Assembly: GCF_054482525.1 (NCBI RefSeq)
Contig: NZ_CM137006.1
Length of the DNA stretch: 64,000 bases
Reading direction: 5' to 3' (one strand)
Shown: positions 1-3,000 of the stretch, piece after piece
How the letters are laid out: each line of letters starts with the position of its first letter
Position numbering within the stretch: position 1 is the first letter of the stretch
Position numbers: made by a program

Positions 1-3000
1 TGTGAAATTATTTTGTTTCCAATGATTTCAGGCGAAAACCTATCAATGCATCTGTTTTCAATAGGCAGCCACCTTCCGTGATTAACATGTTAATCACGGA
101 AGGTGAAAAGCTATCAATAATCGATATTTTCACGGAATTACCACTTAATACATCCCAAAAAATGCGCCATAAAATACCGGGCAATCTTTCCTGATACACA
201 TTATCACTGCACCAGCTATACAGAGACAAAATAATCTGCACCAGCCCCTGTAAATCGGTTATCTGTGCCAGTGTCCCGCCGCTCTACCTGTTCAGGGTTG
301 TGCCAGTTTCTGGCCCTTTGGTTTTCGGCCCTTTCCGGTCAGGCGCTGTTACCCTTATTGCCCCTTAACCTTTATGACCCTTTCCCTTTCTGACGCAACC
401 AGTTTATTTTGAAATGCTCCATGACAGTCTGCACCAGACTGTATTTTCACCACAGGATAACGATCACAAAGTGCAAAAAAATAACATGAAGCACCGAAGA
501 TTGTTAATCTATATGTAGCAGGTAATGATGTCAAAAACTGTCGCAGCATTTTTTATAAAATTATGAGACATTCTGTGGGCATATAATATATGTCACAAGA
601 TGCAGGAAAACAAAGAGAGAGTTTTCAGATATAATCCTGCGTCAGAATTAATGTGATGCCCCGGTGAATTTACATTTTAAAATTTCCCAGTCCCGTAATA
701 TCGGTAAAAACGATTGAAACACCAGCTATTAATCGGGAACGTTTCGAGTGATTACAGGGTAATCACTATAATATCCCGGCAAACTATATTGGTTAAGCAG
801 GAGAATCTGATCAGTTGATATTTATTCGTCATGCTGTAACGATATTTTCACAATATAAACCCGTTCGCCCCCTGCGCCAGATCCGGTACAGAGGGTACGA
901 TAAATCGCTGTCGTTACGCAGTAACGTACTATTTTGCGACATTCATGAATTCAGTCATTCCTCCCTCCAGCGGTAGCCGTACACCTGTTTCACCCAGCGA
1001 CCGCGACCGTCGCCATGACCCAGATCCGTCGCCGTCAGCGCCAGTGACTCCTTTTCGCTGAATCCCTGCGCCAGTATCCAGGACTGTCGTATAACGGGGA
1101 CGCCCGCCTTTGGTGCCAAATACCACTTTTAGCCGGGTTTCACCGCGGGAAATGGCTTTCAGCCACGTTTTCAGCGACTGTGAACTCTGTACCGCCTCCT
1201 GCGAACGCAGCCCCATCAGCCGCGCAATCTCCAGCGCTGCTGCCAGCCCTGCGTCCTGAGTACGGGCTTTCTCCATCACCTGCTGGTAATGTTCCGGCGT
1301 GATGGCGCGGCGCGTGCCGTTGCGCGAAGCGCCTGATACCCCTAATGCCTTATTGGTCAGACGCGGATGCTCCACCACCTGCCTGCGTCCAGCCTGTCTC
1401 AGCACGGCCCGCAACGCTGCCATTTCGTTTTGCAACGTTCGTAAACCAATATCCAGCTCCAGCCGTTCCTCAATGTAGCATTCGATATGGCGAACCTTGA
1501 TCTGCTCCACCCGCTGGATCTGGATATTCAGCGCCCGTAAATGTTCACTGAACCGTTTTGTAATATGGATACGGTCATTCACCGTTTTGAAGCTGCCGCC
1601 CGCTTTCTTCGCCAGCGCCTTCATTTCACTGCTTAATTTACTCATGAATCCCCCTGCAACAAAAACAAACAGTCTCCGGCGTGTGCTTTTTGGCTGCGCC
1701 AGAACGATACCTTTACGCCGGAGTGGTAGTTTGTTGAGGTTTAGGGAGTTTCAGGCTGTACGCAGTACAGACTGCCTGCGAAGCAGGAGTGTCTCCGGGG
1801 CTTCTTGCCCCCCTCGGTATCGATCTTTTTCTCCTTTACTCTTAGCTGACAGCGGCCCCAAAGGGCATGTCAGACGGCGGAAATATGGCGCAGGCCAGAA
1901 CTGGCGCGGCTTGTGGCGGTGAGTTGTGCGGCGTCACTTTGCTTTTTCGCTGGCGCGACCAAAGTGACGCCTCGTCTGGTGCAGGGGGTAAACGTTACGT
2001 TTCTGGTGCAGGGTGACGGTCACGCGGCAGCAAAGCCTGACGGCAATGCAGGCCGCAGCCCGTCAATGTAAGGCGCTGGTTGTCAGCAGAAGATAAAACC
2101 CGGCAAAGCCAGAGTGTCAGCCCGTAAAGCCGGGTATCTGGTGCAGTGATGGTGTATATGTACGTCAGTCTCAGATGCAGGTATTTTTGCATCCCCGGCG
2201 TTTTCAGAGATCAACGCCGGTAAAGGATGCCATGCTGGCGAAGCCAGGCGCTTCTTTCAGACGTGAAGCGACAAAGGGACTGCCCGGAGGCAGTTTGTTG
2301 CAGGCGGGAGACTGCGCCATTATTTCTGGTGCAGGAAGGAAAAACTGTTTCCGGGTTTAAAAGATTGTTTGCTTACCTGGTGACGGAAAAACTGCCGCGC
2401 TTCGCTTGTCTTCTCCCGGCGCGCTGCCAGCAAAAGCAGGCAGCGCGCCGGGAGAGTCTGGTTTTACTGTAACAATGCGCCTGACGGTTCAGCCATCAGG
2501 ATCGGCGTTTTTGCATGAGTCTTCCGGTACGGTTGCCCCGATCATCGATGTATCTGGACGGCCAGATAATTTCCGGTGATGTTTCCAGCGCATCCGCAAT
2601 CAGTTTTTCGCCGCGCGGCCTGGAGCGGGTCAGCGCATTTGCCAGCGTGGAAGACGCCAGCCCGGCCCTGCGGGAAACCTCAGCCAGCGATGTTCCCTTT
2701 TTTCTCAGGCCCGCGATAATATCGGCGGGGTGCCAGTCGGGTTGCATCATGCTGGCCTCCCGTCGATAACCTGTATGCCGTCAGCAGTACATATCCAGCG
2801 TGGGGCGTTCAGATTGGCGGCAAAATACCAGACCAGTTCGCACAGCAGCCCGGTCAGCGTGGTTTCGGTTTCCGGCAGCAGCACGTGGCCGTTCAGTATC
2901 TGCGTCAGCGCCAGGCAGTAATCGCAGAGTGATCCTGCATCAGGCTCAAACCGGGTGAAACATCGGGAAGATCATTCGTAATAAACCCGTCAATCAGATG

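Follow-up and report, generated by a model that had tools for sequence, protein, structure and literature searches.

The window analysed here is the whole of a 64,000-nucleotide (nt) stretch of DNA from NCBI RefSeq assembly GCF_054482525.1 (contig NZ_CM137006.1), and this report concerns two inverted repeats near its left end, designated IR1 and IR2. Both lie within a unit of about 850 nt that is read on the minus strand and extends from the stop codon of a Ner-like gene to the start codon of a tyrosine-recombinase gene of the Integrase_1 family (Table 1). The Ner-like gene is the last gene of a C4/IsrK-type operon, and the same-strand order isrK/C4, orf153, ner-like, IR2, STAXI-like repeats, an ultra-conserved block, IR1, the EFASI RNA motif and Integrase_1 is fixed and recurs across loci. 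The island within the window sits at an asparagine tRNA gene, with E. coli 1190 and PCN033 being 100% identical; the tRNA and a P4-like integrase gene are just past the left end of the window, and the island backbone is also found at other tRNA genes in E. coli. The original prediction, made from the sequence alone, had described the two repeats as perfect, within a GC-rich stretch holding no convincing ORF, and had suggested recombination sites, processing sites or a structured RNA. Both repeats were recovered with both arms where it had placed them, and were perfect. The stretch is GC-rich and it is not featureless: it holds a match to EFASI and is the known STAXI/EFASI neighbourhood beside a C4 RNA operon.

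Table 1. Positions within the window of the structured unit, its repeats and the neighbouring genes
Feature	Position	Strand	Details
Tyrosine-recombinase gene, Phage_int_SAM_2 + Integrase_1 family	929-1645	minus	Pfam E = 8e-41, 7e-36
EFASI RNA motif (RF02957)	1701-1828	minus	100.8 bits vs gathering score 51.2; full-length model match 1-133
Conserved hairpin CUGACA…UGUCAG	1846-1873	minus	just 5' of AAGGAG box and EFASI
IR1 bipartite hairpin	1930-1971	minus	12-bp perfect arms 1930-1941 / 1960-1971, 18-nt spacer
Ultra-conserved block, ~75 nt	2003-2078	minus	16-pair helix (2065-2047 with 2032-2014), ends in CUGCACCAG
STAXI-homologous hairpin repeats, UNCG loops	2157-2295	minus	aligned to L040 7809-7948
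IR2 3' flank AGACAAGCGAAGCGCGGCAG, nearly invariant	2392-2411	minus	columns invariant or at least 90% conserved in alignment A2 across genera
IR2 stem-loop	2412-2455	minus	17-bp perfect arms 2412-2428 / 2439-2455, 10-nt loop
Ner-like HTH_35 gene	2496-2750	minus	Pfam E = 9e-31; PHROG transcriptional repressor
orf153, frameshifted in window	2747-3207	minus	~153-aa protein (MATT…), between C4 and Ner-like gene
C4 antisense RNA	3261-3349	minus	Rfam; head of same-strand operon
isrK / c4-a1b1 element	3371-3446	minus	Rfam; head of same-strand operon
CTGGTGCAG direct copies (read CUGCACCAG on minus)	1976-1984, 2003-2011, 2138-2146, 2326-2334	plus	9-mer count
CTGGTGCAG inverted copies	207-215, 236-244, 429-437	minus	9-mer count

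When the whole 64-kb window was scanned for perfect arms of at least 12 bp with a loop of up to 40 nt, only three such inverted repeats were found, all in the first 2.5 kb, whereas 30 dinucleotide shuffles averaged 0.2 and never produced one of 17 bp or longer. IR1 and IR2 are therefore not chance occurrences, as the rarity of such stems had led the original prediction to hold. Each occurs once, with no further copy of either elsewhere in the window, and E. coli genomes carrying the unit, of which there are 426, have it at a median of one and at most three places, a distribution unlike the dispersal of repetitive extragenic palindromic (REP) or bacterial interspersed mosaic elements (BIME).

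Homologous loci (given L numbers below) were obtained in two ways. A protein-anchored scan with an intact recombinase gave nine loci, which include Escherichia whittamii, E. albertii, Serratia, Klebsiella, Cedecea, Pseudocitrobacter, Salmonella arizonae and Erwinia; a 19-nt pattern taken from the most conserved block, and independent of IR1 and IR2, gave about 110 true homologs from metagenomes. The statistics for IR2 are based upon alignment A2 (39 distinct sequences), those for IR1 upon a 76-sequence alignment, and the whole-unit consensus fold upon 31 sequences that share less than 97% identity. From the Ner-like stop to the recombinase start the stretch can be aligned across genera, with an identity to the window of 58-71% for distant classes and 84-97% for the closer E. 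coli-type classes. Absence of the repeats from homologous loci had been named beforehand as an argument against them; IR1 and IR2 are both kept across at least eight enterobacterial genera, with compensatory changes, and are real, conserved stem-loops.

With one U·U mismatch allowed, the stem of IR2 reaches 20 bp and closes on a 4-nt loop; its folding energy is about -45 kcal/mol whichever strand is taken (z = -7.5 and -8.6). The 20 stem positions were 96.3% paired, a level reached by 0 of 500 shuffles and compared with 42-56% for slid controls, and compensatory double changes were seen at 10 of the 20 pairs. The base of the stem, CUCUCCCG/CGGGAGA, is constant and its middle covaries. IR2 was present in 34 of 36 distinct contexts, the exceptions being a replacement in L010 and a deletion removing the 5' arm in L118, and the flank AGACAAGCGAAGCGCGGCAG on its 3' side was kept even in these two loci. 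The hairpin started 5-62 nt past the Ner-like stop codon in 12 of the 17 loci examined, and 9 nt past the preceding open reading frame (ORF) where the Ner-like gene is absent. On the minus strand no U tract follows IR2 in the window or in 39 of 39 homologs, all of which have AGACAAGCGAAGCG directly after the stem, and a terminator scan returned no minus-strand terminator at IR2. The earlier statement that the strand of the Ner-like gene has no U-run here thus extends to every homolog, and IR2 is therefore not an intrinsic terminator. In L118 (2754-2853, corresponding to window 2383-2482) the 5' arm of IR2 is lost, the deletion having brought what remains of the Ner-like gene, its 3' part, directly up against the 3' arm. 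Identity between the window and L006 is 90% to the right of about 2395 and far lower on the left side, so that a mosaic junction is marked by IR2 together with its invariant flank. In some variants a higA-like helix-turn-helix (HTH) gene is inserted on the same strand, directly past IR2 and the invariant flank.

IR1 alone folds less extremely than IR2 (z = -1.9 and -2.8). Its lower stem of 11-12 bp, with a GCGUCA/UGACGC core that never changes, is followed by a bulge and then by an apical stem of 4-5 bp. RNAalifold recovered the IR1 stem from the 76-sequence alignment; it is 98.7% paired, and 4 of its 11 pairs show compensatory changes (GC/UA, CG/GC, UA/CG and UA/GC). The 18 nt between the arms had been regarded as a spacer; the length was right, and this is no plain spacer, since it contains a second small covarying stem. 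Variants of the apical stem include TCGC/GCGA, CTCAC/GTGAG, CCCG/CGGG, GTCGC/GCGAC and CCGC/GCGG, and 43 of 43 distinct IR1 variants take the same bipartite fold at -16 to -36 kcal/mol. IR1 was lost in one homolog (L107) and weakened in one (L101). In L007 (5303-5367) and L058 it is lengthened to a 24-bp perfect palindrome, the left flank being an inverted copy of the right flank; both loci lack EFASI and the 5' part of the recombinase gene, and the rearrangement ends exactly at IR1.

IR1 and IR2 are only two among roughly ten or more conserved hairpins, and the consensus fold of the unit is a chain of them. Between 1829 and 2470 it comprises 115 local pairs that are 92% paired, compared with 33-48% when slid, and 33 of the pairs are compensated; without IR1 and IR2, 81 pairs remain that are 91% paired. 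The repeats next to IR2 are homologous to STAXI: in L040 the segment 7809-7948 scored 40.7 bits with the Rfam STAXI model (gathering score 40.5) and aligns column for column with window 2295-2157. The copy in the window is too diverged to match that model itself, the Rfam search of 1800-2520 at E up to 10 yielding no match to STAXI and only spurious microRNA-type matches, to the bare IR2 hairpin. The STAXI-like part has three successive predicted hairpins, with the loops C(UUCG)G, C(UCCG)G and GAAA, the UUCG and UCCG loops being closed by C-G in hairpin 2280-2294. The 16-pair helix of the ultra-conserved block is 99% paired, with 32 G·U and 0 A·C. The EFASI motif was matched in 7 homologous loci as well; its model excludes IR1 (102 nt 5') and IR2 (584 nt 5'), and the STAXI model covers neither.

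Two further sites within the unit differ among classes. A few nt to the 5' side of EFASI (about 1832-1840 of the window, minus strand) there is a conserved AAGGAG box, which in classes B and E (e.g., L006 and L040) is followed by AACAUGA, giving a Shine-Dalgarno sequence and an AUG that open a tiny ORF over the 5' part of EFASI, 17 codons long in L006. At 2099-2113 on the minus strand there is a terminator-like site in the middle of the unit, with a CUGGC/GCCGG stem followed by UUUUAUCUU, found in the E. coli class only; in other genera this position has a hairpin, CCGGAAACUUUCCGG, without a U run.

The unit lacks the third-position excess and codon periodicity seen in the first recombinase codons, and most of its indels are not multiples of 3. 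It is therefore not coding, and the view that the stretch has no convincing ORF was correct. RefSeq nonetheless annotates a 52-aa hypothetical protein in the non-coding stretch; the five candidate small ORFs matched no Pfam family, and the stop-free-frame test is uninformative here owing to the GC-rich DNA. A sigma-70 scan of 1500-3800 gave no promoter-like hexamer pairs, and no sigma-70-like promoter inside the unit is positionally conserved among the 31 homologs, which fits read-through from the upstream operon.

The 9-mer CTGGTGCAG occurs 7 times in the 64 kb, compared with 0.43 expected, and all copies are in this region, where they form inverted arrays that flank the recombinase gene, EFASI and IR1. 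Alignment columns show that the copy at 2003 is kept in every genus. The copies may be a protein site or may serve long-range RNA pairing; for the copy at 1976-1984 the predicted partner is a near-complementary stretch at 2313-2320, and 5 of the 7 pairs between them are compensated. That the copies represent arm sites of a P4-type integrase was rejected, as they are absent from the interval between tRNA and int and the conserved copy is inside the structured unit.

We examined which strand, and which molecule, the hairpins belong to from the wobble pairs in the alignments. In the minus orientation the IR2 cells include 60 G·U and 8 A·C, and the hairpin was therefore selected in the sense strand of the flanking genes. 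For helices predicted in both orientations the minus-strand counts were 130 G·U versus 69 A·C, and for the curated EFASI RNA within the same alignment 33 G·U versus 24 A·C. The sense-strand wobble, together with the UNCG/GNRA loops, favours RNA. Weinberg et al. (2010) likewise reported STAXI near integrases and c4 RNAs and favoured RNA because of the UUCG loops (PMC2864571); STAXI transcripts were seen by strand-specific RNA-seq in Pectobacterium (PMC4710047), and EFASI and STAXI RNA were detected in E. coli vesicles by reverse-transcription quantitative PCR after DNase treatment (PMC12370729). All of this published work concerns loci other than the present one.

The explanation that we favour, and consider moderately probable, is that IR1 and IR2 are cis-acting RNA stem-loops of one structured leader or intercistronic RNA of about 850 nt, specified by the minus strand. 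Among the possibilities raised at the outset, a structured RNA fits best and a processing site may also apply, whereas a recombination site is disfavoured because the stem middles drift freely, the wobble is strand-asymmetric, and there are no partner sites in the window. The RNA of the unit would join the C4-controlled operon to the recombinase gene. The 20-bp stem without a U tract, the site right after a stop codon and the invariant 3' flank suggest that IR2 may be a transcript-boundary hairpin which, by analogy with known stem-loops, could act as a processing site of RNase III size and/or as a barrier to 3' exonucleases; it would thereby allow the upstream mRNA and the structured leader to have separate fates. 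Its stem has the length of an RNase III substrate (about 20 bp, two helical turns). The invariant core and the flanking CUGCACCAG repeats point to IR1 as a putative protein-recognition hairpin in the recombinase leader, where it may take part in control of the recombinase gene.

Several observations weigh against assigning the hairpins to such an RNA. The total RNAalifold energies of the two strands are near equal (-412 versus -410 kcal/mol) and do not discriminate between them; the wobble asymmetry outside IR2 is only about 2:1, and IR1 alone has 12 G·U versus 8 A·C. Folded DNA tolerates G·T pairs too. The invariant half-sites of IR1 and the repeated 9-mer would suit DNA-binding proteins as well, and rearrangements end exactly at IR1 (L007 and L058) and inside IR2 (L118). 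The scan of 1500-3800 and the 31 homologs identified no promoter for the unit, and the recombinase gene is frameshifted in the window, so that the unit may no longer function here.

Among the alternatives, that of folded single-stranded DNA carries the most weight, although we hold it to be unlikely. Here one DNA strand would fold into the hairpins in the course of replication, repair or island transfer, and these would be a substrate or landing site for the adjacent tyrosine recombinase, or act in priming or early expression. The recombinase gene, whose product is probably active to judge from its intact homolog, is about 285 nt downstream of IR1, and IR1 itself has invariant inverted cores, a variable covarying centre and asymmetric bulges. 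The endpoints at IR1 and within IR2 would be accounted for, and the strand asymmetry is equally compatible with one DNA strand. Frpo-type single-strand promoters fold in the template strand, whereas the favoured strand here is the sense strand, on which the wobble pairs lie; moreover, the stems contain no -35/-10 hexamers, no second copy or partner site is present in the window, the median is one copy per E. coli genome, and no cassette-like variable DNA adjoins IR1. The idea of single-stranded DNA was also raised for STAXI by Weinberg et al. (2010), given neighbours that encode Ssb, topoisomerase, antirestriction and integrase functions, and the same paper contains the argument that UNCG/GNRA loops are not specially stable in DNA (PMC2864571).

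It is improbable, in our estimate, that IR2, STAXI, IR1 and EFASI together make up a single folded nucleic acid of about 0.85 kb that is the dedicated partner of the Integrase_1-family recombinase; one form of it could be a large structured RNA by which the enzyme is guided or gated. The other could be a folded DNA strand in which IR1 serves as the recombination hairpin, and this would amount to a new kind of folded-strand recombination, under control of C4 antisense RNA, in genomic islands linked to tRNA genes.

We also doubt that IR1 and IR2 are sites in duplex DNA, and rank this explanation below that of a folded single strand. On this view IR1, either alone or together with the CTGGTGCAG repeats, would serve the neighbouring Ner-like or HigA-like HTH proteins as an operator, or would be a recombination core. 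The half-sites GCGTCA/TGACGC are sequence-invariant across genera, the over-represented CTGGTGCAG copies stand in direct arrays by IR1 and in inverted arrays beyond the recombinase gene, and two HTH regulator genes adjoin. However, sequence changes freely in the middle of IR2 and in the apical stem of IR1 with pairing kept, which a dimeric DNA-binding protein does not need, and the asymmetry of G·U versus A·C is meaningless in a duplex. The core sites of lox, dif and att have spacers of 6-8 bp; that of IR1 is far longer at 16-18 nt, that of IR2 is 4-10 nt of varying sequence, the arms drift by compensation, and the window has no second site.

That IR2 is a plain terminator, of the Ner-like operon or of antisense transcription on the plus strand, with IR1 incidental, is very improbable: its location just past the Ner-like stop in most loci and a T-rich run on the plus strand 5-10 nt past the stem would suit it, yet the minus strand has the invariant AGACAAGCGAAGCGCGGCAG in place of a U tract, a plus-strand role would turn the 60 G·U cells into C·A mismatches, IR2 remains joined to the downstream unit in L004, which has a different upstream gene, and IR1 is as conserved as IR2.

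The genes on both sides of the unit were compared among the homologous loci. The order of C4 and isrK matches the window in L006, L011, L013, L040 and L060. The orf153 protein is kept across genera, with a homolog in L013 at about 3400-3860, and matched no Pfam or PHROG family. In the window the recombinase gene starts at 1645 and is labelled 'frameshifted' in RefSeq; an intact homolog of 294 aa is found at L005 4954-5838, and the RxxE, K, HxLR, GH and Y motifs are kept in its translation as read. The Integrase_1 protein had no sequence match among solved structures, and a literature search on PF12834/PF12835 found nothing relevant.

The unit was matched by one 3-kb fragment record among 50,697 phage records and by one viral contig, and is therefore not a phage hallmark. 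Plasmid matches were confined to mislabelled pieces of Salmonella chromosome and to a truncated remnant on pESI-type plasmids. In one of these, pN55391 of Salmonella Infantis (L002, 5900-6400), the remnant extends from IR1 to about window 2370 and lies between an insertion sequence (IS) remnant and the pemK toxin gene, without EFASI and without the recombinase gene; about 140 pESI-like plasmids carry such a remnant. The island has shrunk in many E. coli genomes to the P4-like int, Integrase_1, EFASI and IR1, joined to the start of yeeJ. This junction is at L005 6330-6334 (about window 2136), 1 nt before the third copy of CTGGTGCAG.

The third perfect palindrome of the window, at 70-105, has a 16-bp stem and a 4-nt loop (CACCTTCCGTGATTAAcatgTTAATCACGGAAGGTG) and has AGGYGAAAASCTATCAAT direct repeats on its flanks (30-47 and 101-118). 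In L001, L004, L005 and L008 a sister palindrome, CTTCTGTGATTTG…CAAATCACAGAAG, is found about 220 nt further left, and the pair was found in Escherichia only. The two look like paired operator sites between the two integrase genes.

STAXI, described in 2010, and EFASI have been orphan enterobacterial motifs of known neighbourhood, near integrases and occasionally near c4 RNAs. What is new here is that in tRNA-linked islands both are part of one contiguous, co-oriented and strongly conserved unit, in which IR2 is the hairpin that defines the 5' boundary and IR1 a bipartite hairpin at the centre, and which extends from a C4/IsrK-controlled operon to a tyrosine-recombinase gene. A prior description of the contiguous unit or of the boundary hairpin was not found in Rfam release 15 or in the papers searched, the supplement to Weinberg 2017, where EFASI is described, not being among them. 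Defined coordinates, a strand and targets for compensatory mutation are now at hand for experimenters. Should an antisense-RNA immunity circuit prove to control an island recombinase through a long structured leader, this would bear on the decisions that govern genomic-island mobility.

We compared the hairpins with known systems. IR2 resembles an intrinsic terminator in its GC-rich stem, its 4-nt loop and its location just past a stop codon, and differs from one in the missing U tract, a stem much longer than usual at 20 bp, and the conserved non-U sequence that follows. Stem-loops that are RNase III sites or 3' stabilisers include lambda sib and the sites of the T7 early region; like these, IR2 is a near-perfect duplex of about 20 bp between cistrons, in a mobile-element operon ending in an integrase-type gene, and the likeness is one of resemblance only. 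IR1 resembles integron attC and the attP(+) of CTX phage, being an imperfect hairpin with conserved inverted cores, a variable centre and bulges beside a tyrosine-recombinase gene. It is unlike these in that there is no cassette array and a single copy per locus, the unit contains RNA-type tetraloops, and the neighbouring gene is of the Integrase_1 family, with no homolog of IntI or XerCD demonstrated. As for STAXI (RF01728; Weinberg et al. 2010), the window segment homologous to the L040 match, itself at the gathering score, consists of UNCG-capped hairpin repeats, and the window has the integrase and c4 neighbours described in PMC2864571; IR1 and IR2 lie on either side of the STAXI part and, as simple or bipartite hairpins, are distinct from the repeated pseudoknot unit. 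EFASI, 'Enterobacteriaceae, Frequently Around STAXI and Integrases' (Rfam RF02957), shares the stretch and strand of IR1 and IR2 and is immediately upstream of an integrase-family gene. The Rfam text, in the part quoted in PMC12370729, locates EFASI several hundred bp downstream of STAXI. In the Rfam view EFASI is likely a trans-acting small RNA, whereas the data here point to one contiguous conserved unit.

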